Source: Candidatus Levyibacteriota bacterium (GTDB lineage Bacteria; Patescibacteriota; Microgenomatia; Levybacterales; UBA12049). From it: a stretch of 52,511 nucleotides of DNA. Numbering within the stretch: the stretch's first letter is position 1; the number at the start of each line of letters is the position of its first letter. Made by a program: the position numbers and the translations under genes. The notes beneath the pieces were generated by a model, which saw only the letters and a list, made by a program, of their open reading frames with translations, did not search any database and was not told the origin of the DNA. Positions 39,070 to 52,511 of this stretch are shown here, piece after piece. The stretch lies in the NCBI GenBank assembly GCA_016199085.1, contig JACQHJ010000008.1:1-52511 (forward strand). Reading direction: 5' to 3'.

Positions 39070-40212
39070 TCAAATGTGAAGAAGCCATCTCAAAAAGGTT
39101 GTGGTTTGGTCATTTATTTTATTGTAAATCGTTTTTGTAAACTCCTGGGTAAAGTAGCGGGTTTTTAGAACAGTGCTTTTGACAGCTGTCTGGATTGTTT
39201 TTGGCTCTATTTGTGGTGTTCCTTTAATTTTGGGAAGCTTTGCGTAAGCTTCGTAAACCGGCGTTCTTTTGTTATCCAAGATGAAGGAAAATTTGCGAAA
39301 AGGTTCACCTTCTGAATGAAGTAAAAAGGGAGTTACCGCGACAATATTTTTATCACTCCAGGCGTTTTCAAATGCTCTTTTATAATACTGGACCTGAGCC
39401 TCGTGGGAAGTAGACTCAGTTGTCCAACCTGTTTCTGTAATAAAGACAGGTAAGTTTTTATCTGTAAAATTAGCTATTAAATCTTTTTCAAATTCATAGG
39501 AATATATTCCGTTAACTCCTCTATACTCAGGAGTTGAAGAAAATCCCGGATTTGGATATGCGTGGACAGATAATCCATCAATTCTTTCAAAAATACCCGG
39601 TACTGCCTGGTTCATTTCGCGAAGATAATTGAACTGGCTTATGTATTTTTGATAAACATCTGGGGCTGCATTGTCTAATCCTCCTCCAATAATGAAAAAC
39701 CTTCCGTCTCTTTTTTTAAAGACATCAACGGCATAGTTTAAAATATCGGCATATTCTTGAGGGTTTGGTATTCCACCCCATTCATCACCCCTGTTTGGTT
39801 CATTTAAAACGATTATGTACCGGTTTTTCGTTGGCCAGTTAAGCGAACTTAGAAAGTTTGCAAAATCAATCATTGAGTACTTATTGGGTTTTTCCCATGA
39901 AGCTTTATTGAAATAATCTCCTTCCGTTGCAAGCCTGATTAAAGGAATTACTTTATAGTTTGCACTGTCATCTAAAAATTTCTGCCATTTCTCAATGTTT
40001 CTATCAGAAATCCTAATTGGAATTGTAACGTATCCCCATTCTCCTCCACTTGAATTAACAAGATGAGCTGCTTCTGATATCTCTTCGGGGAAAAGAATAT
40101 GGATGCCGTATTTATTGTTTGAAGTAGATAGGGGATCATAGATTGCATATGAGGATTTGGGGGAAAGAAGCATGACAGAGATTAAAAATAAAAAGAGAAG
40201 TAGATTTTTCAT
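39070..40212 (-). CDS. Secreted clan GH-A glycoside hydrolase-like protein
   Basis: Signal peptide; acid/base 'LNEPN', 'HAYP', nucleophile 'FITETGW'. Confidence 0.7.
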   Translation of the reverse strand: MKNLLLFLFLISVMLLSPKSSYAIYDPLSTSNNKYGIHILFPEEISEAAHLVNSSGGEWGYVTIPIRISDRNIEKWQKFLDDSANYKVIPLIRLATEGDYFNKASWEKPNKYSMIDFANFLSSLNWPTKNRYIIVLNEPNRGDEWGGIPNPQEYADILNYAVDVFKKRDGRFFIIGGGLDNAAPDVYQKYISQFNYLREMNQAVPGIFERIDGLSVHAYPNPGFSSTPEYRGVNGIYSYEFEKDLIANFTDKNLPVFITETGWTTESTSHEAQVQYYKRAFENAWSDKNIVAVTPFLLHSEGEPFRKFSFILDNKRTPVYEAYAKLPKIKGTPQIEPKTIQTAVKSTVLKTRYFTQEFTKTIYNKINDQTTTFLRWLLHI

Positions 40213-40251
40213 TGAGCTTTTATTTTACATCAATCAGAAATAAGTAGCTAC

Positions 40252-40938
40252 TTAAATAGAAGTCTGGGGTCTATTTTTAACAAGATATGCTAGTGCACCT
40301 GCACCTGCATATAAGCTTACTCGTTCTGCTTTGAAATCCGCATTATGAGTATTGTAGACTAATGGAATTGTTAAGTCAGTTGAGGGTGGATAAAGTTGAG
40401 GGACAAATACGCCGTATGCTCCTGGATCTCTTTCAAGACATGCGCAATTTCCGAAAGTTTGCACCCTAAACATTCCGTTTGTATTAGCTTGTGAACTAAA
40501 AACCATCGGACCTCTTGGTCTACCTGGCCTCAAAAGTCTGGGCAATTCCGCTGATGGATTAATTTTTTTATAAACTTTTCTCATTATGGTTTCAACTTGA
40601 GACATTGTTTCTGTAAATCTTGAAGGATCAGCAGTGAGCAATGCCAATTCTCTTCTAAAACTGGGTAATTGAACAAGTGATCGGGAAATTATCATATATA
40701 AAAATTTATCGCTATCTTTATCTACGGGACCTATATGATCAGCTAGTAATCTTATAATGCTTGATTGATCCTCAAAAGCCAATGGATCAAGTCTTTTCTC
40801 CTTATCTCCAGACCCAATCAGAAATTGCATTGATTTTGGGTCAAAATAAAAAGGGACACCATCCCAAATTGATATCCCGATCTCTTCGGTAGCGTCAGGC
40901 AAATGAGTGCTAGAATCTTCTTTTTTGTTGCGTGGCAT
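40252..40938 (-). CDS. Hypothetical protein (orphan)
   Basis: 228-aa ORF; TATAAT 10 nt upstream of ATG. Confidence 0.65.
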   Translation of the reverse strand: MPRNKKEDSSTHLPDATEEIGISIWDGVPFYFDPKSMQFLIGSGDKEKRLDPLAFEDQSSIIRLLADHIGPVDKDSDKFLYMIISRSLVQLPSFRRELALLTADPSRFTETMSQVETIMRKVYKKINPSAELPRLLRPGRPRGPMVFSSQANTNGMFRVQTFGNCACLERDPGAYGVFVPQLYPPSTDLTIPLVYNTHNADFKAERVSLYAGAGALAYLVKNRPQTSI

Positions 40939-40959
40939 ATTGACAGGGATTATAACATA

Positions 40960-41808
40960 TCAAAATCTAGCAATTATTCCAGTAGACAGCATTCTGTTTC
41001 TATCGTTTTCTTCCAATGCAAGCTCTCCACATTGGATCTGATCCTTTGGGAGTTTTAGATAATCTTCCATCATGTTTCTAAGCATTAAAGATGACGCAGA
41101 GATTGCATATGCATTTATTATTACAAAAAGGGGATTTTTGTTAAGCGCTGCTCTACAATTCTCAAGCAAAACTGAAAAAGACTTATTGAAATCCCAAATC
41201 TCTCCATTTGGTCCGTGGCCATAGACTGGTGGATCCATGATTATTGCGTCATACATGTTTCCCCGTCTTGCTTCTCTTGCCGTAAACTCAACTGCATCAT
41301 CTAAAATCCATCTGATCGGTTTATCGGCAAGACCGCTTAACTGCTGGTTTTCTCTTGCCCAGGAAATTGCAGGTTTTGAGCCGTCCAAATGGGTTACTTT
41401 TGCTCCGTTTGCCGAACAGATAAGCGAAGCAATGCCTGTATATCCAAAAAGGTTTAAAACGTTTATTTCTTTTTTTGTGTTTTTTAATTTTTCTTCAATA
41501 AAATCCCAGTTCAATACTTGCTCGGGGAATACTCCCGTGTGTTTGAAGTTTGTAAGCTTTGCATAAAACTTTACGTTTTTATATGAAAGTGGCCATTTAT
41601 CTGGGAGACTGTTTTTGTTCCATTTCTTTTCTTCATCGAGATAGGTTGCATCGGCTTTATCCCAATCAGCTTTTGGCAGATGAGGTTTCCAGATTGCCTG
41701 TGGGTCAGGCTTTGAGATAATGTATTTACCAAATCTTTCAAGCCTTTTGCCGTTTCCAGAGTCTAATAATTCGTAATCCTGCCAGCCTTTGGTAGAAAGA
41801 AGCTTCAT
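40960..41808 (-). CDS. Class I SAM-dependent methyltransferase (RlmI/RlmK-like)
   Basis: 'DYELLDSGNGKRLERFG', 'HTGVFPEQ', 'VLNLFGYTG', 'DPPVYG'; probable start ATG at 41808. Confidence 0.88.
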   Translation of the reverse strand: MKLLSTKGWQDYELLDSGNGKRLERFGKYIISKPDPQAIWKPHLPKADWDKADATYLDEEKKWNKNSLPDKWPLSYKNVKFYAKLTNFKHTGVFPEQVLNWDFIEEKLKNTKKEINVLNLFGYTGIASLICSANGAKVTHLDGSKPAISWARENQQLSGLADKPIRWILDDAVEFTAREARRGNMYDAIIMDPPVYGHGPNGEIWDFNKSFSVLLENCRAALNKNPLFVIINAYAISASSLMLRNMMEDYLKLPKDQIQCGELALEENDRNRMLSTGIIARF

Positions 41809-41844
41809 AGAGCTAATCTTACCATAAAATGTTAAAATAGGGCT

Positions 41845-42810
41845 ATGTTGGTGGATGAGGTACAAATTATAGTCAAAGCGGGAAATGGCGGAAACGGATC
41901 CTCTTCTTTTAAAAGAAATGCCCAAACAGCTAGAGGTGGTCCTGATGGTGGAAATGGAGGGAAAGGTGGCAGTGTCTATGTTGTCGGAGTAAATGATATT
42001 GATGCTTTACAGACATTTCGATATGCAAAAAAAGCAAACGCTGAAGACGGGATAAACGGAGGAAGACAAAAATTGTTCGGAAGAAACGGACAGGATTTAA
42101 TAATCAAAGTCCCTTTTGGAACATTTATTCATGATTTATCAAACAATACAACATTTGAAGTGATAGATGAACAATCAAAACACCTTATCGCAAGGGGCGG
42201 AAAAGGCGGTAGAGGAAATACAGAGTTTAAATCCGCTACAAACCAAGCCCCCAAGTTTGCCGAAAAAGGAGAAGCCGGTGAAGAAAAAAGAATTAATTTA
42301 GAACTTAAGCTTATCGCAGATGTTGGCCTTATAGGACTCCCAAATGCAGGCAAAAGCAGTCTTTTGGAGGTTTTGACTAATGCGCATCCAAAGATAGGGA
42401 ATTATCCGTTTACAACTCTTGAGCCAAACCTTGGAGTTATGGAAGGACTTATTATAGCCGACATTCCGGGACTGATAGAAGGAGCACACAGCGGAAAAGG
42501 GCTGGGGGATAAGTTTCTAAAACACATTGAAAGAACTAAAATTTTGGTTCACTGTATTGACGTTTCTTCAAATGATCCATATAAGGATTATGAAACCATA
42601 CGGTTGGAGTTAAAAAGCTTTACTGAAACCTTACTTTCCAAAAAAGAAATTATTTTAATCACAAAATCTGATTTAATAAGTACGGAAAATGTAAAAAAGT
42701 TCGTATCACTTTTTAAGAAAAAGGGCAAAGAAGTATTACCTGTATCGATTTATGATGATAATTCATTAAAATTACTTAAAGAAAAGATTAGAGAACTTAT
42801 TGATAAATGA
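41845..42810 (+). CDS. obg: GTPase Obg/CgtA
   Basis: Gly-rich Obg fold 'GGPDGGNGGKGG', 'GLPNAGKSS', 'YPFTTLEP', 'DIPGLIEGA'. Confidence 0.96.
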   Translation: MLVDEVQIIVKAGNGGNGSSSFKRNAQTARGGPDGGNGGKGGSVYVVGVNDIDALQTFRYAKKANAEDGINGGRQKLFGRNGQDLIIKVPFGTFIHDLSNNTTFEVIDEQSKHLIARGGKGGRGNTEFKSATNQAPKFAEKGEAGEEKRINLELKLIADVGLIGLPNAGKSSLLEVLTNAHPKIGNYPFTTLEPNLGVMEGLIIADIPGLIEGAHSGKGLGDKFLKHIERTKILVHCIDVSSNDPYKDYETIRLELKSFTETLLSKKEIILITKSDLISTENVKKFVSLFKKKGKEVLPVSIYDDNSLKLLKEKIRELIDK

Positions 42811-43967
42811 AGTATTTGCAAATCTTTGCAAACATCTGTCTAGTTTTAGCATTATATTATTTAATCTATTACGTTTATCTGGGTATTGTCTCTCCTATTC
42901 CTCAAGCGGGAGACAGTTTTGACTATCATATTCCAATTGCAAAATCTATTTTAGACGGAAGCTTTCTAAGCGGCCTTGGTTTTACCAAATATCAGCATTT
43001 CTATCCTGGCACGAGTGAAATTATTAATTCCTTATTTATTCTTTTAAACATTCCCTTAACCCTTTCAAACATAATACCTTCGGTTTTGCTTGGTATCTCA
43101 TGTTTTATCTTGGGAAGAGTATACAGATTGGATAAGTACTCAGCAATAATCTTTGCATCTTCAATTTTTACCTTAAATGCGATCCTTCGATGGATGAATG
43201 CAGTCAGTGTTGACGCTTGGATAGGAGTATATTTTGTTTTAGCTTTGATTCTTTTAAAAAATCCAAACAAAACCGTTTTGTATTTTTTAAAATTAGGTGT
43301 CGTGTTCGGACTCCTAATAGGAACAAAGTATTCTGCAGTTTTGCTTTCTTTAGTATTACTTGTTTTTTATTTCAAAGATTTAATTAAAGTTTTAAATTTA
43401 AGAAACCTCATCTCCTTTTTGATTCCTTTTAGCGCACTAGGCCTTTTTTGGTATTTTAGAAATTTCTTGATAATGGGAAACCCTTTTTATCCCGTACCAA
43501 TTCTTGGATTTCCCGGAAAAGACGTTTTTAACGGTACTACAATGTTAAAAGCTACAATTAATTATCCAATAGATATGTTTAATGCAGCTTTCTCTGAGTA
43601 TAAATTGTGGTTTTTAACTGTAATTGCTGCTCCAATACTTCTATATAAAAAGAGGGTAGAGGGGGAGATCGGAAAGCTTTTACTTTTGGGAATTGTAAGC
43701 TTTATAATTTTTCTTTTTTTTCCGACAGACAATCATACCTGGGTAATGGTTTCTAGTTTTAGATATTCTTACTTTGTCTTTGTTCCGTTAATCCTTGGTG
43801 TATTTTTATATTTCAATTCTCTTAGAAAAATGAAGTGGCTCTCTTATTTTGCTATTGCCAATATGCTTGGGGTGTCTGTAATAACATACCAGCCGAAGCT
43901 GATATTGATAGTTATACCACTTGCCTTAGCTCTTGCATGGATAAGTTCTTGGCGCACAGGAAGATGA
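42807..43967 (+). CDS. Polytopic membrane protein, GT-C glycosyltransferase-like
   Basis: 'DSFDYHIP', 'GTKY', 'WYFRN...GNPFYP' resemble the product of 1..1581. Confidence 0.6.
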   Translation: MKYLQIFANICLVLALYYLIYYVYLGIVSPIPQAGDSFDYHIPIAKSILDGSFLSGLGFTKYQHFYPGTSEIINSLFILLNIPLTLSNIIPSVLLGISCFILGRVYRLDKYSAIIFASSIFTLNAILRWMNAVSVDAWIGVYFVLALILLKNPNKTVLYFLKLGVVFGLLIGTKYSAVLLSLVLLVFYFKDLIKVLNLRNLISFLIPFSALGLFWYFRNFLIMGNPFYPVPILGFPGKDVFNGTTMLKATINYPIDMFNAAFSEYKLWFLTVIAAPILLYKKRVEGEIGKLLLLGIVSFIIFLFFPTDNHTWVMVSSFRYSYFVFVPLILGVFLYFNSLRKMKWLSYFAIANMLGVSVITYQPKLILIVIPLALALAWISSWRTGR

Positions 43968-45011
43968 AGATACCTCTGCAACTATTTTATAGTTATGGAC
44001 ATTAATTGCCAGTAGATACTCTGCTGTGCTTGGAGCAGCTGCCTCAAGTCTTGCAAGAAGAAGTTTTGCCTTCTCTAACTGCACGGGCGTATATGATCTG
44101 TAATCCGAAAAGGGAGTAAGTATGTCTGCGTATATTTCAGCTTTATCCTCATACATTTTAGTAGTACTATATTTGCTGACTACATACCTGTCATACCCTG
44201 GCATTATACTACCGTAAACAAAACCATCCGGATTTAAGTGTCTATATTCAGGATCTCTTTCATATACGAACATTCCGCAATATGACGTATCTACTCCGTG
44301 GCCAAGCTCATGGATTATGACATGAGGCTTACCATTATAAAATGTATGAAGGGGAAGTATCATGGTATCGGGTAAAGCCTCGTAAACACCGGCTGTTCTC
44401 ATTCCATTTGCAAATGGGCTCTCGTCGACAATCTTAACTTTTCTAATTTCTGAAGCCCTAACAATTTCTACGGGAACAAAGTTAAAAGTACTCATAAATA
44501 TTTCTGTTCCCGATTTCAATCTCTCAAAATCCAATGAGTCAAAATCAACAGCTTTATATGGAAGAAATACATCTTTTAATTCCATTCCTGAAGGAACTTC
44601 AACAGAGAAAGAAAAATTGCTGGTAAAAGCATTTAACAGATCCAAAACCTCTCTTGTTGTTGATGCTTGGTAAAGCTGATCAAGGTAAGGTTCAACTTCC
44701 ACTAAAGTTAACCCTAATTCTTTTGCCTTATTTTGAGCGAATTGTTTAAATATTCCATAGTCTGTGCTTGGCACTTGACCCTTCCTGTTGAAAGCAAAGT
44801 CAACAATCCTTGCGGCTTCTGAAGGCACAACAGGACATGCATCTTGCAGAAAATTTTGCGCAAGTCTGGGAAGAAGAAAAGGATCGTTTGCGGAATATTC
44901 ACCCACACCAGCTGTTGATGCAATAGAAAGAGCAACGGCAGCAGACACAAAAGGCCGCATATTTCTACGCCTTACAAAATGTGGACCATTATCACGCTCT
45001 CTGTTAAACAT
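43926..45011 (-). CDS. Putative exported zincin-like metallopeptidase (orphan)
   Basis: N-terminal basic then hydrophobic segment; 'IIHELGHGVD' and downstream 'YS....EDKAE'; own promoter TTGATA-N17-TATAAT. Confidence 0.6.
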   Translation of the reverse strand: MFNRERDNGPHFVRRRNMRPFVSAAVALSIASTAGVGEYSANDPFLLPRLAQNFLQDACPVVPSEAARIVDFAFNRKGQVPSTDYGIFKQFAQNKAKELGLTLVEVEPYLDQLYQASTTREVLDLLNAFTSNFSFSVEVPSGMELKDVFLPYKAVDFDSLDFERLKSGTEIFMSTFNFVPVEIVRASEIRKVKIVDESPFANGMRTAGVYEALPDTMILPLHTFYNGKPHVIIHELGHGVDTSYCGMFVYERDPEYRHLNPDGFVYGSIMPGYDRYVVSKYSTTKMYEDKAEIYADILTPFSDYRSYTPVQLEKAKLLLARLEAAAPSTAEYLLAINVHNYKIVAEVSSSSCAPRTYPCKS

Positions 45012-45073
45012 AAGCGATAATTATATCAGTCATGTCAGTAAATATCAAACTATAGGTTAGACAAGGAAACCGC

Positions 45074-45099
45074 AAAAAAACCCCTTGCGGGGCTTTTTC
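45074..45099 (-). terminator. Intrinsic terminator (possibly bidirectional)
   Basis: GAAAAAGCCCC-GCAA-GGGGTTTTTTT. Confidence 0.8.
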
Positions 45100-45150
45100 G
45101 GGGTAATCTATTGCTAGATCTCCTGCCTTTAATACTTTCGTATTAGAGGT
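45074..45150 (-). ncRNA. Candidate small structured RNA with three GNRA-capped hairpins
   Basis: Minus strand: CCTCTAATAC-GAAA-GTATTAAAGG, GATCTA-GCAA-TAGATT, GCCCC-GCAA-GGGGT plus U-tract; directly after a consensus promoter. Confidence 0.6.
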
Positions 45151-45157
45151 AAAAAGC

Positions 45158-45186
45158 ATTTTATACTCCTAATCATACTTTGTCAA
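45158..45186 (-). promoter_or_regulatory. Sigma70 promoter
   Basis: TTGACA (45186-45181), 17-nt spacer, TAAAAT (45163-45158). Confidence 0.75.
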
Positions 45187-45213
45187 TAGGCAAAATATAA
45201 AACACAAATTAAG

Positions 45214-45471
45214 TTACTGGCGTGCTTGAAGTTTTGATTTCACCTCTTGGTTAAATGAACTGTACCATCCTTCAAAGTCCGCTTGTTTTCTTTCAATGTT
45301 TGAGAATTTACTTTTATAGATAGATTGGTTTTTGGAAATAATTTGATTAAATTCATTAAAATTATTCTCGATGTTGCTTAGTTTTGTCGAAAGAACAACA
45401 AAAAGAATTGCTATTGCTGCAAATGAGAGTATTGAAATGTAAAACCCGATAATTCCTAACTTTGACTCCAT
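45214..45471 (-). CDS. Small single-TM coiled-coil hypothetical protein
   Basis: 85 aa, N-terminal TM helix, SD AGGAG. Confidence 0.6.
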   Translation of the reverse strand: MESKLGIIGFYISILSFAAIAILFVVLSTKLSNIENNFNEFNQIISKNQSIYKSKFSNIERKQADFEGWYSSFNQEVKSKLQARQ

Positions 45472-45482
45472 AATACTCCTTT

Positions 45483-45740
45483 CTAAGCAGTCCTCATTCT
45501 TGGTGAGGATACAATGAGAGGTCTAACAAGTGTTCCTCCGCCGATTGGAACTAACCTTCTTGGTATAGTCGTCGCTACGTATACCACAGGATTTCCTTCT
45601 TGGGGTGTCGATCTTTTGTGAACAACCGTTGCTTCTACTCTTGCTCTTTTTTCATTTGGTCCTTGAAAGTATATGACAACATCTGTTCCCAGGCTTACTG
45701 TTCTTACTTTTTTAAATTCTCCCTGTCTTCTTTCCGGCAT
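45483..45740 (-). CDS. Hypothetical protein (orphan)
   Basis: 85 aa; TTGACA-N17-TAATAT 8 nt before ATG. Confidence 0.55.
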   Translation of the reverse strand: MPERRQGEFKKVRTVSLGTDVVIYFQGPNEKRARVEATVVHKRSTPQEGNPVVYVATTIPRRLVPIGGGTLVRPLIVSSPRMRTA

Positions 45741-45781
45741 AGTCGAAGATATTATCAGACTAATAATAACTTGTCAATTGA

Positions 45782-46339
45782 TTAAGGTTTTATAAAGTTT
45801 GAAGCGGTTATTACAAGCAAAACTCCAATGGTATTAAATATAAATGAAATTATAATAAATTTATAAACCTTTACTTTTGATATTCCAAGCAAACTTACTC
45901 CGATTTCATCAGGCAGGGGAGAGGCAATAATAAAGGCACCAATCACAGGCAGAGTCCAGCTGAAGTATTTTGTGTGCAAAACGTGATTAATATGATTTCC
46001 CCCTAATCTTTCATAAATACCGTCAATTTCTTTTACCAAATCATCTTTTACAAATTTATATATCGTCAAGTCTCCAAGTACTGCTCCCAAACCAGCTAGT
46101 ATCCCTAGTTCTATGGGAGAAAGTGTTTCGGCAAGAATAAGTAAAATTACGGTCGCAGTTGCAACGGTAAATGAAGACGTAAAAAAAATTCCGGCAATAA
46201 AACCACCTATGTAACCTAATTCTCCAAAACGAAGTAGGAAAGTATGGAATTGTTCGGATCTTGAAAGAATCAGTGCAAAAACAATGGAAAGGAAAAGAAA
46301 AGTCAGGTTTCTATATTTCCAATGTTTTAATAAGTACAT
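45782..46339 (-). CDS. Membrane protein (distantly DedA/VTT-like)
   Basis: About five TM segments; 'GLGAVLGD', 'IIASPLPDEIG'. Confidence 0.65.
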   Translation of the reverse strand: MYLLKHWKYRNLTFLFLSIVFALILSRSEQFHTFLLRFGELGYIGGFIAGIFFTSSFTVATATVILLILAETLSPIELGILAGLGAVLGDLTIYKFVKDDLVKEIDGIYERLGGNHINHVLHTKYFSWTLPVIGAFIIASPLPDEIGVSLLGISKVKVYKFIIISFIFNTIGVLLVITASNFIKP

Positions 46340-46444
46340 GTATTTACTATAGCAAAATATTTGTAATATTTTAAATAAACTATATACTTAATGATCATTA
46401 ATCCTATAGTTGAATTCAGGACTTTTGCATGCTAATATGTAACG

Positions 46445-47077
46445 ATGTCTGAGCTGATTGGTAAAAATCCCAAGCTTCAACCAGAATATTGGGAAGGAAA
46501 AACAATCCATGATGGTGGAGAATTAACTGATTATCCTGAATATGGAAAAGGCGAAATTGCCTTTGCAAGAGAGTCAGTAAGGGCCGTATTGGGCAATCCG
46601 CCATTCGCAATTCCCCACGAACCGGTTGCAATCTTTGAACATGGCACAACTTTTGACTCCTCTGCTTATCAACCAGGTACAGTCGTAAATCTAACCGTAG
46701 AATCATTAATAGGTCCCTTAGGCAACAATTTAGCGTTGTTTATTAGAAAGTACTGGGCATCTGTAGTGAAATCTAAGGACAAGGCTCCAGGCCCAGAATC
46801 CCTTTTAATTGGATTCAACGAATGGGTTGAGCATGTTGGATATAGCAATCGAGAAGTTAGAAGAATGAATTATGGAATAAGTCCCGTCCCTTTCCCCGTA
46901 AGTTTTAGGATTGGGGAAATTTGGAGAGACCAAGTTTCAAGTGTTGGAAATATAGAAGAGCTAAGGAAAGCTACTAGACTTGAGGTAATTGCCGTAGGTC
47001 AACAAGTAAAAAGAGATGTTAGAGAAAGAAATCCTCTTAGGAGACTACGACTCGTTCCATCTAGGTTTTCGGCTTAA
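46445..47077 (+). CDS. Hypothetical protein (orphan)
   Basis: 210-aa ORF; extended -10 TGcTAATAT 6 nt before ATG. Confidence 0.65.
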   Translation: MSELIGKNPKLQPEYWEGKTIHDGGELTDYPEYGKGEIAFARESVRAVLGNPPFAIPHEPVAIFEHGTTFDSSAYQPGTVVNLTVESLIGPLGNNLALFIRKYWASVVKSKDKAPGPESLLIGFNEWVEHVGYSNREVRRMNYGISPVPFPVSFRIGEIWRDQVSSVGNIEELRKATRLEVIAVGQQVKRDVRERNPLRRLRLVPSRFSA

Positions 47078-47098
47078 TTGTCATTAGAGACAGTGGAA

Positions 47099-47587
47099 TT
47101 ATTCTCTTTCTACTCCTCTTCCGAAGTCCTGAGCAGTCTCGGTTCCCATTAGAGTTGGTATAACCATTCCGTTCTCAATAGTTACTAATCCTGCATCAAC
47201 CATCATATCAGCCCATGATTTAATAGGTAATAGCTCAAAAGCATCTTCCTCTGTCGCTTGAAATACTTCGTTTAGCTCTCCACAGAATGCTTCAGAAACT
47301 TCATGTGCAGCTAAATAACTGTCAGGATGTGCTTCGCTGTATAAGCTGGATGCAGAATCACGCAACATTCCTGCTGCAAGAGGATAAATATGGTCAAAAT
47401 CTCCCGCATCTACTGTTCCGGCCCATTCTTCGGATATTCTGTATCTTTGTTGAAATTCCTGTCGTAATCCAGTTTGTAGTGTGGTGTCAAAAAGAATTAA
47501 GGCTCCTGAATTACCAGACTGCTCTACTCTTGTACGAACTTGTCCTAAAAATTGAGGCAATGGTATTTCTCTGTTTTGAAGTGTCAT
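47099..47587 (-). CDS. Hypothetical acidic protein (orphan)
   Basis: 162-aa ORF; TTGACA-N17-TATTTT upstream. Confidence 0.6.
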   Translation of the reverse strand: MTLQNREIPLPQFLGQVRTRVEQSGNSGALILFDTTLQTGLRQEFQQRYRISEEWAGTVDAGDFDHIYPLAAGMLRDSASSLYSEAHPDSYLAAHEVSEAFCGELNEVFQATEEDAFELLPIKSWADMMVDAGLVTIENGMVIPTLMGTETAQDFGRGVERE

Positions 47588-47673
47588 TCAAGTAACAAAA
47601 TAGCACCTAACAAATACTTTGTCAACGATAATCTGATTAGTCTGGTTCAGCAATCTAAGCATCACTTAAATTT

Positions 47674-47707
47674 GTACCGCCAAATGCTTAGGAATTGGAA
47701 CCAGATA
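47674..47707 (+). repeat. Cassette-boundary repeat R1
   Basis: GTACCGCCAAATGCTTAGGAATTGGAACCAGATA; TGTACCGCCAA (47673-47683) is identical to 51563-51573 at the tRNA-Glu 3' end. Confidence 0.8.
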
Positions 47708-47726
47708 TTGAATCTCTTAGCTTATT

Positions 47727-48179
47727 TTAAAAGTCGTCATTTTCCAGTTTCCATTCCTCAACTACATGAGAGTCTCTTGCGACAAAAGGAGATTGTGAAT
47801 GCATTCGGTAATAATGGCTTCTCTCGCTTGGTGTAAGAAGCTCACTTTTAATTGTGGCTCTAATATCTACTGTTAATCCACTTCTCCTGAATGCTGCTGT
47901 TACGCGTCTATATCTTCTGCTTCCCCAACCTGTTTGCCACTCTCCTCCATTAAATATTATATCTAAGTCTATATCCTCTCCATCTTCATATGTTCCTTTT
48001 GCATAACTTCCGCCTAGAGTAAACGCGTCTATAGATGGAATACTAGTAAGCAATGCAGCTAATATTGTAGGAACCGTTAGATAGATAGAGTGTCGACTTT
48101 TATTGTGATACCCTGCAATATATAAATGCGTTTGTTCTACGTCTGGAATTTTCCGTTTAGTTCTGTGTTCAGGCGACAT
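47727..48179 (-). CDS. Minimal nucleotidyltransferase-domain protein (Pol beta superfamily)
   Basis: 'LGGSYAKG.....DIDLD' GS...DxD motif and later 'VDI'. Confidence 0.7.
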   Translation of the reverse strand: MSPEHRTKRKIPDVEQTHLYIAGYHNKSRHSIYLTVPTILAALLTSIPSIDAFTLGGSYAKGTYEDGEDIDLDIIFNGGEWQTGWGSRRYRRVTAAFRRSGLTVDIRATIKSELLTPSERSHYYRMHSQSPFVARDSHVVEEWKLENDDF

Positions 48180-48228
48180 GGAGCATATTTTAACTCAAGA
48201 AAACTTTAATTTCAAACTATAGGGCTGA

Positions 48229-48263
48229 GCACCCCAAATGTTTCAGAATTGGAACGAGATACG
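48229..48263 (+). repeat. Cassette-boundary repeat R2
   Basis: GCACCCCAAATGTTTCAGAATTGGAACGAGATACG; 32/35 identical to R4. Confidence 0.9.
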
Positions 48264-48314
48264 AGTTTCGCTGGAGAAATGGAAAGAACTTTAAATCCCA
48301 ATCCGCAGCAACTT

Positions 48315-48343
48315 TTGACTTTAACTAAATTAGATATTAGAAT
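48315..48343 (+). promoter_or_regulatory. Sigma70 promoter for the first PurM-like gene, in the repeat tail
   Basis: TTGACT-N17-TAGAAT, 13 nt before ATG 48357. Confidence 0.6.
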
Positions 48344-48356
48344 CATTTATATCTTC

Positions 48357-49367
48357 ATGTCTATCACTTACCAAAAATCGGGAGTAAATTATAACCTCAT
48401 GGATCAGTTTAAAAACGCCTGTATAAAAGCTGGAAATAATTCTCCTCAATTAATAGAAATTCATGATTATTATCTAATTGATGTTCTTGAAGGACTGGGT
48501 AGTTTAGGCAAATTAGCTGATGATATTTATAAGCTAACTGGCAAGGACTACTATTATGAGGTGGGTTGGGGAAATGCAGCAACCGTAATAAACGATCTAA
48601 TATCCATAGGAGCTACTCCTTTAACATTAAAGCTATTCGTTGCAGCAGGAAATGAAAAATGGTTTGGAGATAAAAAGAGATGGAAGAATTTAGTTAAAGG
48701 CTTTAAGGATGCCGCAAACTACTCAAAAGCATTATGGAATGGCGGCGAAACCCAAACATTAGTAAAAGTTGTCTCTCCAGATTCTATCGTCTTAGCAGGG
48801 TCAGCTACTGGTATTGTAAAACCAAAGAGTTGGTTAATAGACGAAAACAATATTAGGGAAAACGACGATATCATATTTTTCAAAAGCTCTGGCATTCACA
48901 CAAACGGCGTCACCTTGATAAGAAAGCTATTTCAAAACAACGGAAAAACCCTAATAAAAGTAATTGAGCAGAAGACTATAATTTATAGCCCAATAATACT
49001 TAAGATTTTAAAAAATAATATAAAAATTCATTTCGCAACCCACATTACAGGTCATGGGTGGCGTAAGATTATGCGGCCTAAAAAGAATTTTGTTTACAGA
49101 ATAGATGAGATACCAACTCCTCCAGAAATTTTTAAAATTATTCAAACCAAAGCAAGTTTATCCGATTTACAAATGTATTCAGATTTTAATATGGGCGTAG
49201 GATATGCAATATTTGTTTCCCAAAAAGATACAAAGAAAGTATTAGAAATTGCAAGAAACTTGAAATTTAATGCATTTGCTGCTGGAAAAGTTGAATCAGG
49301 AGAAAGAAAAGTAATTATAGAACCATTGAATATTACCCTAGAAGGTAAATCTTTAAAAATAAGATAG
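48357..49367 (+). CDS. purM: PurM-like AIR synthase family protein, copy 1
   Basis: 'ITYQKSGVN', 'EGLGS', 'INDL...GA.P', 'GGET', 'SSGIHTNG', 'HITGHG', 'FNMGVG'; probable start 48357 rather than 48249. Confidence 0.8.
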   Translation: MSITYQKSGVNYNLMDQFKNACIKAGNNSPQLIEIHDYYLIDVLEGLGSLGKLADDIYKLTGKDYYYEVGWGNAATVINDLISIGATPLTLKLFVAAGNEKWFGDKKRWKNLVKGFKDAANYSKALWNGGETQTLVKVVSPDSIVLAGSATGIVKPKSWLIDENNIRENDDIIFFKSSGIHTNGVTLIRKLFQNNGKTLIKVIEQKTIIYSPIILKILKNNIKIHFATHITGHGWRKIMRPKKNFVYRIDEIPTPPEIFKIIQTKASLSDLQMYSDFNMGVGYAIFVSQKDTKKVLEIARNLKFNAFAAGKVESGERKVIIEPLNITLEGKSLKIR

Positions 49368-49377
49368 TTTTAAACGA

Positions 49378-49412
49378 GTACCCCAAATGTTTATGAATTG
49401 GAACCAAATACG
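49378..49412 (+). repeat. Cassette-boundary repeat R3
   Basis: GTACCCCAAATGTTTATGAATTGGAACCAAATACG; 31/35 identical to R4. Confidence 0.9.
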
Positions 49413-49511
49413 AAGCTCGCTTAAAGCATGGCATGCGTCATTAAACCCTAGCTTTAACTCGAGACGATCATATGCTATAAAGTAACTACCTTAAGCTAAT
49501 AGGACTAAGTC

Positions 49512-50627
49512 ATGACAAACGAAAACCGATCAATTACTTATGCATCTACAGGAGTTAATTACGATGCCATGGATCCTATTAAAAGATTTGCTCAAATGGC
49601 GGCAAGAACCACTTCAGGAAACTTACGAGATTTAGGTTTTCAAGAACTTGAAGCAAGTAGAGGAGAGTCAGCCCATGTTATTGATGTTGGTCCATTTTAT
49701 CTTGCAACAGTAATGGAGGGATTAGGAACGAAAAATCTTGTTGCTGACGCAGTAAGAAGCGATAAAGAGCCATCCTTTTATAACAAAATAGCACAGGATA
49801 CTGTAGCGATGATAGTTAATGATTTAGTTGTCGTTGGTGCTAGACCAATGGTAGTAAGTGCATACTGGACTGCGGGAAGCGGAGACTGGTTTGAAGATGA
49901 AACAAGATCCAGGGAATTAGCAGAAGGATGGGCTAATGCTTGCAATAAGGCTGAAGCAATCTATGGAGGGGGTGAAACACCCACCCTTAAAGACATTATT
50001 AACCCTGGGACAGTAGATTTAGCTGGATCTGCAGTAGGGATCATTCAACCTAAGAGTAGACTTACATTAGGAGATAGAATTGCAGAAGGCGATAGGATTA
50101 TTTTAGCTCCGAGCTCAGGGATTCATGCTAATGGACTTACCTTAGCAAGAAGAATTGCTTTAGAAATTGCTGATGGATATAACACCAGATTATCTGATGG
50201 TAGAACCTATGGAGAAACCCTACTACAACCAACTCCAATATACGCCAAATTAGTACGAGAGCTTTTTGATGCAGGAGTTGACATTCATTATATGGTTAAT
50301 GTGACTGGACATGGCTGGAGGAAATTAATGAGAGCTACAAAAGATTACAAATATGTCATTGATGCTATACCTCAAGTACAACCAGAGTTTGATTTTATTA
50401 AGGGACATTCAGGCAATACCCTAGAGGAAATGTATGGAAATTTTAATATGGGCGCAGGATTTGCCTTTTTTGTTCCCGAACATGCAATGGAAAGAACTTT
50501 AGCTATAGCAAAAACCAGAGCATGTATTAATTTATTAAATGCAGGGGTCATTGAACCTGGACCGAAAGAAGTTGTAATAAATCCTGTTGGAGTAAGTTTT
50601 AAAGGAGAATCATTAAGTGTAAGATAA
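49512..50627 (+). CDS. purM: PurM-like AIR synthase family protein, copy 2
   Basis: 'ITYASTGVN', 'EGLGTK', 'VAMIVNDL', 'GGET', 'SSGIHANG', 'NVTGHG', 'FNMGAG'. Confidence 0.85.
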   Translation: MTNENRSITYASTGVNYDAMDPIKRFAQMAARTTSGNLRDLGFQELEASRGESAHVIDVGPFYLATVMEGLGTKNLVADAVRSDKEPSFYNKIAQDTVAMIVNDLVVVGARPMVVSAYWTAGSGDWFEDETRSRELAEGWANACNKAEAIYGGGETPTLKDIINPGTVDLAGSAVGIIQPKSRLTLGDRIAEGDRIILAPSSGIHANGLTLARRIALEIADGYNTRLSDGRTYGETLLQPTPIYAKLVRELFDAGVDIHYMVNVTGHGWRKLMRATKDYKYVIDAIPQVQPEFDFIKGHSGNTLEEMYGNFNMGAGFAFFVPEHAMERTLAIAKTRACINLLNAGVIEPGPKEVVINPVGVSFKGESLSVR

Positions 50628-50657
50628 TCCTGTCATAACAATCTAATCTTCAATTTT

Positions 50658-50692
50658 GTACCCCAAATGTTTCAGAATTGGAATCAGATACG
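50658..50692 (+). repeat. Cassette-boundary repeat R4
   Basis: GTACCCCAAATGTTTCAGAATTGGAATCAGATACG. Confidence 0.9.
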
Positions 50693-50799
50693 TAAAAATT
50701 TGGAAAAGTGGAGAAGTATTCTTCAACTCGTGCCTAACATCTCTTAGACTTTAACTGCCAAAGTGGATTAAAAATTGTTAAAAGCCCAGGAAATATTAC

Positions 50800-51455
50800 T
50801 TATTCTATGTAGGAAAGCCTTTGTCTTCTTGTTACTCTATAAGCGGCAATGCTTTTCCATAAATCACTTATTTCATTATCTAAATTGTCAGCGGTCCTAA
50901 AAACATCACGAGTTCGCCATGCTTCACCAGGAATAGAATATTCTACAGCAGATAATCTTCTATCGTAAGCGAGAGGCTCCAATGTTCTAACTAATAATGT
51001 ATCTTTTTCAGCTTGATCCCTAGCTGGTTCTAAATCAATTATGTCATCAACGACACGCATAACTGTTTGACCAACTTGGCTTTCAGACATGCCTTTTCTC
51101 TCCAACCTCCCTTTAATATCTCTAACTTCATCAAGCACTCTTACTAATTTCGTCCTATCTTCGATACCAGTATAAGTAACGACAACACCAGTACGTAGCA
51201 TGCCCGAGGGTAAAGGCTCTCCAGTTTCTGGACGCACTTGCTGTTTTGCAACTGCGTAACTATATGTACCTAATCCCGCTTGGGTAAGACCGTCTGCTAC
51301 CGCTTGATAGAAGGATAAGTTACCTATGGGTATTAATTCATTTATTTGAACAAGGACAGGTCTTGGTCCTTCAAATGCGCTGGTTGTTCCTCCAGGTGTG
51401 GAGGAGTAGCTCCTGCTTTATGTCCAGTTTTTCGCCTTTCGCTTGGAGGTGTCAT
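50800..51455 (-). pseudogene. Orphan gene with an apparent single frameshift near 51390-51417
   Basis: ATG 51455 follows TAGAAT by 8 nt and reads MTPPSERRKTGHKAGATPP before stopping after 37 aa; the frame of ORF 50800..51237 is open from 51417. Confidence 0.55.
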
Positions 51456-51564
51456 GATTTGGGATTCTAACACACAGTAGGTTATTTTTCAACGAATAAA
51501 ACGCTACAATTTCTTTTTAAAGAATTGAAGGTTTAGATTGATATATAAGTCTAAACAAATAATG

Positions 51565-51638
51565 TACCGCCAAGGGGAGTCGAACCCCTGATTCTCTGGC
51601 TGAAAACCAGATGTCCTAGGCCACTAGACGATGGCGGC
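51565..51638 (-). tRNA. tRNA-Glu(TTC)
   Basis: Acceptor GCCGCCA/TGGCGGT, anticodon arm TCTGG-TTTTCAG-CCAGA, T-loop TTCGACT; TATAAT 8 nt upstream. Confidence 0.96.
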
Positions 51639-51676
51639 ATAAACTAATTATACCTAAATTGTGTTTTTAAGGCAAA

Positions 51677-52336
51677 CTATTTAAGTCTTTTTCTTAAGTT
51701 TTCCAATATGTCTTTAGCTGTATCCTGTCCGCCGAGTCCGAAAGCTATTCCTCCAGCCACTGCCACCATTGCAACAAGCCCTGTAAACAAGATTCTTATT
51801 AAATCGGTTGCTACTCCAAGCTGGCTTAAGACGGCAAGGATAACAAATACGTTTATTGCCCATCTGACAGCCGAAGCAACTGTTGTTGATGTTTGACTGT
51901 CAACTCCTTTGACAGATGCCAAAACTATGTCATGCGCAATTCTGGCAAAGACAAATCCAACTATTGCAATTACCGCTGCTACAAAGACATTGGGAAGATA
52001 GAATAACACTTCATTTAAAACAGTAATTATTCTAGGTAATCCCCAAACGTCTGCTGTTGGAACAAGGAAAACTAAGATAACAAACCATCTTGCAATCTCT
52101 GCAAGTATATTTGTCCATGTCAATTCATCCTTTAATTCCGGAACTCCGTATTTTTTAAGATATGTTTCCACTCTTAAAGCTTTGGAGCCGCTTATAACTA
52201 TTTGTTTTACCAAGGATCCTACTATGACACCGATTATCAAAATGATTGCTCCTGTTAAAAACCTTGGAATGAAGGAAACCGTTGCGTAGAAAGCATTATT
52301 AAAAGATGCAACTAAGGTTGTACCAATATCGGTCAT
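51677..52336 (-). CDS. TM-helix repeat membrane protein (CmpX/MscS N-terminal-like)
   Basis: Two 'F/YxPxxxxA.II..IG' repeats and C-terminal 'IAFGLGG'; SD AAGGAGGTG. Confidence 0.8.
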   Translation of the reverse strand: MTDIGTTLVASFNNAFYATVSFIPRFLTGAIILIIGVIVGSLVKQIVISGSKALRVETYLKKYGVPELKDELTWTNILAEIARWFVILVFLVPTADVWGLPRIITVLNEVLFYLPNVFVAAVIAIVGFVFARIAHDIVLASVKGVDSQTSTTVASAVRWAINVFVILAVLSQLGVATDLIRILFTGLVAMVAVAGGIAFGLGGQDTAKDILENLRKRLK

Positions 52337-52435
52337 TTAATTCACCTCCTTTCATCTTTTTGATTACACAAGTTATATATTTTTTTGTTTACGCTTGTCA
52401 AGAAGCATTACAAATTGGTATAATTTACTCTACGC

Positions 52436-52507
52436 GGGCCGTTAGCTCAGCGGTAGAGCAGGAGCCTTTTAAGCTCTTGGTCACAGGTTCGAATCCTGTA
52501 CGGCTCA
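52436..52507 (+). tRNA. tRNA-Lys(TTT)
   Basis: Acceptor GGGCCGT/ACGGCTC, anticodon arm GGAGC-CTTTTAA-GCTCT, T-loop TTCGAAT. Confidence 0.96.
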
Positions 52508-52511
52508 CAAA

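Follow-up and report, generated by a model that had tools for sequence, protein, structure and literature searches.

A probable stack of integrase-less integrative elements at tRNA-Glu in a Levybacteria-type genome, with repeats that carry the tail of a large serine recombinase gene

The window analysed here is a stretch of 52,511 nucleotides (contig JACQHJ010000008.1 of assembly GCA_016199085.1, Candidatus Levyibacteriota bacterium). Between positions 47674 and 51638 it holds four direct repeats, R1 to R4, which delimit four units and lead up to the 3′ end of a tRNA-Glu(UUC) gene; each unit holds one gene, in mixed orientation. We show that the repeat is made up of a crossover core of 7 bp and, after it, the last ~35 codons of the integrase gene of a large serine recombinase (LSR); in each repeat, the core and the P′ side of attP coincide with these last codons. 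The array is very probably a head-to-tail stack of four small integrative elements without integrase at the 3′ end of tRNA-Glu(UUC), which are derived from LSR elements or are satellites of them. We take it for stacked integrative elements in a state of decay rather than for a new machine of the integron type. In the following, G-numbers designate genomes and L-numbers designate loci or metagenome contigs; G000 is the window's own genome (an assembly of 939,047 bp in 10 contigs), and G001, G003 and G004 are congeners.

The reading of the sequence and a repeat finder both place the four copies on the same strand, with starts at 47674, 48229, 49378 and 50658. The repeat finder gives spacings of 554, 1149 and 1280; an earlier interpretation made from the letters of the window (hereafter the sequence-only reading) gave 555 for the first one, the difference being due to an additional base in R1. 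The 31-nt consensus is found in 3 copies with up to 3 mismatches, versus 0.00 expected (100 shuffles), and when up to 6 substitutions are allowed it matches R1–R4 and nothing else in the whole assembly. The motif CCAA-N11-TTGG is present in all four copies. The string TGTACCGCCAA occurs twice, in R1 (47673–47683) and, antisense, at the 3′ end of tRNA-Glu (51563–51573), and GTACCGCCAA, which is the antisense start of tRNA-Glu(UUC), recurs at R1. When re-read, the sequence-only description of the same-strand repeats with this motif, of one gene per unit and of the stop codons of two PurM-like genes (10 and 30 bp ahead of the next core) proved accurate, as did its statement that the repeat, at its left end, matches the 3′ end of tRNA-Glu.

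An ATG within the repeat opens frames of 50, 18, 32 and 26 codons in R1 to R4, all on the plus strand. R1 (47674..47836) has the core GTACCGC and a degenerate integrase tail, whose open frame begins with the ATG at 47684 and stops at 47836. R1 has diverged most of the four copies; it contains one base more than R2–R4, hence it is out of frame with the Val-Pro-Gln reading. R2 (48229..48294) has the core GCACCCC and the start of the tail (ATG 48238); its frame ends after 18 codons and the tail resumes in another frame, which is a frameshift. R3 (49378..49485) has the core GTACCCC and a 32-codon tail (ATG 49387, stop 49483–49485) with an altered C-terminus, and R4 (50658..50747) has the same core and a 26-codon tail (ATG 50667, stop 50745–50747), a version also found in the sister genome G004. 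The tRNA-Glu(UUC) gene lies at 51564..51638 on the minus strand, and the integration core is formed by its last bases (antisense GTACCGC), which make up the B′ side.

The repeat motif is present in 11 of 61 relatives (up to 2 mismatches; a reversed control pattern gives 0 matches) and in 5 public genome contigs, two of which are titled Levybacteria. The copies of the relatives mostly open a frame of 32–34 codons, MF.NWNQIR.SLEQW..., which ends in ..NYH or ..GY. A profile of this tail peptide matches 48 of the 201 genomes of the order, often with 2–4 same-strand copies 0.8–1.7 kb apart. For codons 1–20 of 26 intact copies, dN/dS (the ratio of non-synonymous to synonymous substitution rates) is 0.14, with 0.71 and 2.71 in the shifted frames; the 5′ two-thirds of the tail have therefore evolved as coding sequence. 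Searched against 1.84 billion representative proteins, the profile gives only 17 matches, all of 31–166 aa, many of which extend upstream in frame as ..LVTQ or ..VPQ. The longest of them, P0013 (166 aa; all others have 31–79 aa), passes in one frame from the C-terminal sequence of an integrase, ..FPKGII..SSFELIEAL..NLVTH, directly into MFQNWNQIQSSLEQW.., and contig L091 reads ..TFKLIHALGDDNVDLVTQ and then MFLNWNQIRKSLEQW..NYH, also in one frame. The tail of G068 has no ATG (it reads ..PQII..), as expected because the tail is an internal part of a gene. This is also a warning for annotation: the 32-codon frames annotated as genes in these genomes represent tails of the integrase.

The integrase itself was found in a recombinase-seeded search of the fetched loci, which gave an LSR in the metagenome contig L108 (duplicate L118) and a fragment in L079. 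The flank of L108 from tRNA-Glu to tRNA-Lys is 86.8% identical to that of the window, the same level as in the congener G003, and the order of the locus is a peptidase S51 unit, core and tail, six small genes, a 524-aa integrase and tRNA-Glu. The integrase has the Pfam domains Resolvase (3.1e-35) and Recombinase (3.2e-17), with Zn_ribbon_recom at 0.0099, below the cut-off. Its frame runs into the tRNA antisense strand at GTA CCG CCA, and this codon phase, GTA CCx, is that of the repeat, GTA CCC CAA ATG TTT. With the body of this integrase as query, LSRs are found in 123 of the 201 genomes; the identity exceeds 50% in three (G068 70%, G036 53%, G051 52%), followed by G047 with 38%, and all four of these integrases read into tRNA-Glu at the same Val codon. 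In the full elements that were fetched, the tail lies 5–8 kb upstream of the integrase and on the same strand (3/3). Five full-length relatives of P0013 (LSRs of 298–520 aa) stop a few residues beyond ..NL-V or ..NL-A, and in four of the five the ends (..GLEP, ..GFEP.., ..EFES..) are the residues encoded by the antisense of the tRNA T-arm.

Complete elements at tRNA-Glu in relatives are 4–8 kb long and consist of tail, cargo, integrase and tRNA. The fetched elements of 6–8 kb carry an XRE-type helix-turn-helix gene, a conserved gene of 59–69 aa beside the integrase, and cargo. In G068 (L152, G068:C1:229500-238500) the cargo includes a Piwi-domain protein (short Argonaute, pAgo) beside a SIR2-like protein; the G051 element (L153, G051:C2:81500-90500) encodes AbiTii, an HNH-like protein and a gp3-type protein resembling a small terminase (packaging), which hints at a possible phage-satellite lifestyle. 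No capsid genes are present in the full element copies examined. Since the full elements carry defence cargo, these sites are likely hot spots of defence and accessory genes. L091 looks like an intermediate: a core with 5 tail bases is fused to the last ~110 integrase codons, which contain an internal stop, and is followed by a core and a tail. L091 is evidence that full elements do undergo internal deletion.

The link with tRNA genes extends well beyond the window. Among the loci of 20 relatives that were mapped, nine have, like the window, copies directly downstream of the tRNA-Glu 3′ end and convergent with it (G003, a weak and partial match, is counted among the nine), and in a tenth locus, that of G178, the copies lie on the 5′ side of the tRNA and on its strand. 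The genes between copies are nearly all singletons, on either strand. Scanning metagenome contigs gives 63 more tail loci; a downstream tRNA is present in 20 of them and is convergent in all 20 (Glu(UUC) 7, Glu(CUC) 7, Lys(CUU) 4, Arg(UCU) 2), while the other 43 are mostly on contigs of 1–3 kb, with no tRNA in reach. The seven bases ahead of (C)AAATG follow the 3′ end of the neighbouring tRNA, class by class: Lys(CUU) has GTGAGCC, a Glu(CUC) has GTAGCCC, GTACCCC is found beside Arg(UCU) and Glu, and other Glu genes have GTGACCC. The 7-nt core is common to the tail junction and the tRNA junction. For 27 distinct pairs, the mean match between core and tRNA is 5.93 of 7, against 5.16 ± 0.16 with the tRNAs shuffled (0 of 5000 shuffles reach 5.93), with 8 perfect matches versus 2.8 expected, a result that is best taken as qualitative support since related genomes are not independent and the permutation figure overstates the support; it is the four distinct core classes that bear the argument.

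Comparison with the congeners shows how the units come and go. Unit 4 of the window (50658–51563) is ~96% identical to contig C56 of G004 from the left core onward, and cores delimit it in both genomes. To the left of this first core the two sequences are unrelated (the G004 side has only 23 nt before the contig ends), and a slight divergence with a short indel affects the flanks over the ~15 nt ahead of the right core. Past the right core, the window continues into tRNA-Glu and G004 into two further units, one with a 32-codon frame and a 208-aa gene, the other with a 32-codon frame and a 314-aa gene that matches Pfam HbpS-like, before its tRNA-Glu, which stands at the end of the contig. This HbpS-like unit, which has no integrase, is common to two genera (G004 and G064), with 81% identity where the flanking core DNA has 69–75%; it is adjacent to the tRNA in G004 and second from it in G064. 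G003 has one degenerate copy and different genes, and in G001 there is no tail, tRNA-Glu being separated from the conserved flank gene by only 1.16 kb with two genes. Read from these alignments, gain and loss are shown to go unit by unit, with breakpoints at the core.

The mechanism that we propose starts from a parent family, elements of 4–8 kb in this Levybacteria-type order of the Candidate Phyla Radiation (CPR), which encode an LSR with attP inside its own frame, ~35 codons before the stop. Recombination by the LSR at the last ~7 bases of the tRNA (antisense GTACCCC, GTGACCC, GTGAGCC or GTAGCCC) would split the integrase gene, because attP lies inside its reading frame. The body of the integrase would remain beside the tRNA and read into its antisense strand, and the tail (Val-x-Gln-Met-Phe-x-Asn-Trp-Asn-Gln-Ile-Arg..) would land at the tRNA-distal end of the element. 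This split-gene architecture and its link with tRNA genes are shown for the element family. Each repeat of the window is one such core with its tail, and the units, which probably entered or left through an LSR acting in trans, would themselves be internal-deletion products of full elements. The most diverged copy, R1, is also the farthest from the tRNA, which fits newer arrivals inserting beside the tRNA.

The mobility of the units in trans is inferred from the presence of the same unit with different neighbours, and from the fact that several integrase-less units with different cargo carry the same short remnant to the left of the core, ..AATCTAATCGT. It is opposed by the broken tails and cargo, by P arms that are not recognisable, by the lack of a cognate integrase in G000 and by the normal pairing of LSRs, which joins attP only to attB. 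We tentatively put forward two linked ideas, which we think may well turn out to be wrong. In the first, the one-gene units would be living satellites moved in trans by the LSR of the parent elements, and tRNA-Glu would serve as a serine-recombinase cassette platform. In the second, the loss of the last ~35 residues on integration would be a built-in switch: the tailed enzyme of the circle would integrate, and the tail-less enzyme, extended by the tRNA, would act differently, or excision would need the tail peptide or the neighbouring 59–69-aa protein.

Several observations weigh against the array being such a stack, or are left unexplained by it. Neither tblastn nor a hidden Markov model of the integrase C-terminus detects an integrase or a remnant of one in the window's array; the sole integrase trace is a remnant of the integrase 3′ end (P arm) at the right end of unit 3 (50639..50657, plus strand), where CAATCTAATC agrees fully with the L108 integrase; this identity covers 10 nt to the left of R4, with ..NLIFNF in frame ahead of the core. 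The only LSR of G000 is 27.5–29% identical to the L108 integrase and is located at tRNA-Gln. R1 has its extra base, and the core of R2 begins with GCACC. LSRs normally pair attP only with attB; this rule leaves the stacking beside an occupied site and the removal of inner units unexplained. A gene tail does not by itself account for the frequent ATG of the tails, nor for the conservation of their 3′ block in two frames and past the stop. Last, metagenome contigs (contigs only, from four runs of one study) were checked for junctions and, in the parts that they cover, no clean circle or empty-site junction was seen: the joint 51555 -> 50657 ('goes back 899'), present in all four runs, corresponds to the G004-like arrangement and not to a circle, and the joints 48285 -> 51563 and 50687 -> 51564, with unknown letters between, come from a single contig each.

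Another reading takes the array as relics only. It supposes that four full elements integrated in turn and each lost its integrase by deletion, leaving immobile scars, the differences between strains being old events or ordinary deletions. The deletion intermediate L091 is what one would expect in that case, as are the broken tails of R1 and R2, the pseudogene in unit 4 and the P arms that are mostly unrecognisable. On the contrary, unit 4 is nearly the same in G000 and G004 while its neighbours differ on both sides (with the reservation about the short left flank of G004), and the homology ends at the right core or within ~15 nt of it; the HbpS-like unit is found in two genera at different ranks from the tRNA; and ordinary deletions are not expected to end repeatedly at the core. 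We consider this history possible and rather doubtful. We give much less credit to the proposal of the sequence-only reading, a dedicated integron-like platform for gene capture, without attC and IntI, in which the ~35-bp repeat is the cassette site and there is no integrase of its own. It is true that each unit has one gene with short flanks, that arrays of 2–4 units recur in genomes of the order that lack a cognate integrase (48 of 201 genomes have tails, 3 of 201 have integrases above 50% identity to that of L108), and that units with different cargo share the remnant left of the core. Against this proposal stands the finding that the repeat is an LSR gene tail plus a P′ half-site, in frame and contiguous with the LSR gene in natural sequences, and that integrase-bearing parents sit at the same site. 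There is moreover no conserved hairpin, the cargo genes point both ways, and stops or frameshifts interrupt several of the tails. As regards an attC-like hairpin, RNAalifold predicts only a 5-bp local stem for 25 units (−1.17 kcal/mol sense, −2.32 antisense), the folding z-scores of 8 repeat copies range from −0.12 to +1.64, and no IntI-type tyrosine recombinase stands at the head of the array in G000 or in the five other array genomes.

The same tails could also be taken for an independent gene family encoding a protein of 32 aa, with its own promoter and spread by tandem duplication, the similarity with the tRNA end being irrelevant. The low dN/dS, the ATG of most copies and the conserved stop after ..NYH in many of them are what such a family would show; the copies in complete elements that lack an ATG (as in G068), the frame that extends upstream through the core into the integrase, the covariation of the core with four tRNAs and the conservation of the 3′ block in two frames leave it with hardly any credibility. 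Returning to the stack of integrative elements, much of the sequence-only reading agrees with it: discrete elements do stand in tandem at the tRNA-Glu 3′ end, G000 and G004 do differ by whole units with breakpoints at the core (it had placed the crossover in or near GTACC), and the recombinase is indeed absent from the array, none being present in the window's units and those of the genome being on other contigs. The confinement of the repeat to the neighbourhood of tRNAs agrees with it too. Relatives do not keep the same genes in fixed order without the repeats, the breakpoints do not fall away from the repeats, and the repeat is not scattered without a link to tRNAs.

Other candidates were tried and rejected. 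An independent small protein, or a precursor of a ribosomally synthesised and post-translationally modified peptide, acting beside the PurM-like enzymes is not compatible with a frame that runs into the integrase, and PurM-like loci elsewhere have no tails (0/9). For a structured RNA or riboswitch, Rfam (E ≤0.1) reports only two tRNAs in 40000–52511, and no consensus fold appears on either strand. A degenerate pseudo-tRNA was discarded, the repeat sharing only the core and an 8-mer with the tRNA. As for Xer-type or other tyrosine recombinases acting at the site, the same two enzymes are present in every genome checked, far from the arrays, and no positive evidence points to them. The LSR of G000 was also rejected as the enzyme acting in trans, on account of its low identity to the L108 integrase and its location at tRNA-Gln.

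The recombinases of G000 are two tyrosine recombinases (contigs C10 and C2) and this one LSR, all on contigs other than that of the array; the same two tyrosine recombinases are found, far from the arrays, in the five other array genomes (5/5). The LSR gene (contig C1, ~82522–84081, plus strand) overlaps tRNA-Gln(CUG) (84021–84092, minus strand) by ~60 nt, in a convergent layout like that of the tail-bearing family, and the region upstream of it (C1:77664-84092) has genes that look like island cargo, encoding proteins of 749 and 428 aa. In viral contigs, neither a relative of the L108 integrase nor the tail pattern was found.

The last ~22 nt of the tail unit (..ACTACCA.T.GG.A.T.GAA.C; for example window 49460–49500) are conserved as nucleotides in two frames, being read as ..NYH-stop or, shifted by one base, as ..TT.GY-stop, and the conservation runs beyond the stop. 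This suggests that the block may be a site at the DNA level besides being coding. It resembles the 5′ block of the tail (TT..GAATT.GAA.C). Several tails have an insert of 26–44 nt at an identical place, between AATTG and GAACCAG, inside a Trp codon (L054 4689–4775, 5600–5677 and 7665–7715; L059 4302–4426; L060 5077–5133; L062 6407–6484; L072 3407–3475). They are palindromic in part, with GGAGG(A/G) at their end, and nearly the same 32-nt insert occurs in two genomes; we may be dealing with a very small hairpin element that prefers this target, or else with another type of junction.

On the other side of the core, the motif (C)AAACTATA(A/G)G lies 5–9 nt to the left of many cores (window 48180–48228 and 45043–45060; G004, G070, G048, G010, G003), and also to the left of the tRNA in the tail-free G001. 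The motif ..AACTATA(A/G)G.., seen 5–9 nt left of some cores, likewise adjoins the tRNA of G001, and is present at an inner junction in G004. Its position at a tRNA without a tail suggests that it may be the native B arm; the motif may be either this native B half-site or a −35/−10 region shared by divergent genes. We also note that small GIY-YIG nuclease genes recur beside tails or right beside the target tRNA-Glu (L054 5186–5662 and 9431–9727; L058 4914–5303; L061 3163–3414; L072 5545–5817; L153 485–739).

The cargo of the four units is diverse. Unit 1 encodes a small nucleotidyltransferase (47727..48179, minus strand; Pfam NTP_transf_2, E 1.8e-05). Units 2 and 3 encode PurM-like proteins, a (48357..49367, plus; AIRS/AIRS_C; 149 bits versus an NCBIfam purM cut-off of 236) and b (49512..50627, plus; 35% identical to a and also below the purM cut-off). 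Homologues of b are found in 100 of the 201 genomes of the order and no homologue was found in the four congeners, and none of nine loci with nearest homologues has tails nearby; judging by this distribution, b is an acquired gene in the window's genome. That a CPR genome of 0.94 Mb has two PurM-like genes, both below the cut-off, is a side observation, the homologues being single-copy in about half of the order. The cargo of unit 4 (50800..51457, minus strand) has no family assignment and is frameshifted, with an open reading frame at 50800–51237; it is intact in G004 (224 aa), the window's copy missing one G behind 51402, and metagenome contigs of a G004-like strain carry the G.

The variable island is the interval from the left flank gene, which encodes 185 aa (45782..46339, minus strand), is conserved and is common to G003 and G001, to tRNA-Glu. 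Between this gene and R1 are two genes of 210 aa (plus) and 162 aa (minus) (46445..47587), with no family match and no recognisable tail; they have no counterpart in the 20 compared loci of relatives. They lie inside the variable interval and, in the absence of a tail, may be older content of the island. The right flank is syntenic in relatives and comprises a membrane protein with an MscS-type helix (51677–52336, minus) and tRNA-Lys(UUU) (52436–52508, plus). Further to the left, a non-coding block of ~135 nt (45067–45202) is 78–92% identical across several genera, where neighbouring genes have 68–75%. On the minus strand it has a promoter-like TTGACA..TATAAA pair and a terminator made of a hairpin and a T run, without Rfam match, and in those relatives where it is found it is located between the Obg-side flank and tRNA-Glu.

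It is useful to compare the stack with systems that are already described. In integrons and in integrase-less attC clusters, same-orientation sites separate mostly single genes, and some arrays have no nearby integrase. Unlike these, the window's array has no attC hairpin, IntI neighbour, attI or Pc, its cargo lies either way and it is anchored at a tRNA. Phage-type LSRs such as phiC31, Bxb1 and A118 have the domain order Resolvase, Recombinase, zinc ribbon, with short att sites and a small identity core. The present family resembles them in all these respects, and differs from them in that the target is the extreme 3′ end of a tRNA, that attP lies in the integrase frame and that the elements have 4–8 kb, without capsid genes in those examined.

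The tycheposons of Prochlorococcus have integrases labelled as tyrosine recombinases, and att sites that are partial tRNAs, ~40 nt being given as the typical length of integrase attachment sites (bioRxiv 10.1101/2020.12.28.424599). Both systems insert at tRNAs, new arrivals displace older ones inward, degenerate remnants and repeated att copies are left, and what results is a hypervariable island within a streamlined genome; here, on the contrary, the enzyme is an LSR, the overlap with the tRNA is limited to ~7 nt, the block that recurs is an integrase tail and the units have one gene. 'Suicidal' integrases of the SSV type, according to a 2021 review (PMC8371274), have att inside the integrase gene, which is partitioned by integration, and a tRNA target, and they are tyrosine recombinases found exclusively in Archaea. 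The attachment site within the integrase gene, the splitting on integration and the tRNA target are common to both, whereas here the enzyme is a bacterial serine recombinase that is deprived of its last ~35 codons only, with the catalytic, recombinase and zinc-ribbon parts intact. In mycobacteriophages of clusters N and P, attP lies in the repressor frame and overlaps a host tRNA, and integration, by a tyrosine integrase, removes a degradation tag (PMC5764923). An attP that lies inside a coding frame and overlaps a tRNA, and a C-terminus changed by integration, are shared features; unlike in these phages, it is here the integrase itself that is cut and not the repressor. At the level of listings and abstracts, the literature on serine integrases with tRNA targets, with attP in a gene or in these bacteria yielded no description of this LSR family.

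The genomes of CPR bacteria are very small, and few mobile elements have been recognised in them. The locus shows the place of flexible genes in such bacteria and the way in which these genes probably come in. The cis-mobilisable elements (CIMEs) of streptococcal integrative and conjugative elements, with their tandem accretion at tRNA genes, can be likened to this stack, and the closest frame for it is indeed the accretion of integrative elements and of their integrase-less derivatives at tRNA genes, not the capture of integron cassettes. The family joins features that are usually described apart: a serine recombinase at tRNA 3′ ends, attP in the integrase frame, and miniaturisation or decay to units of one gene.

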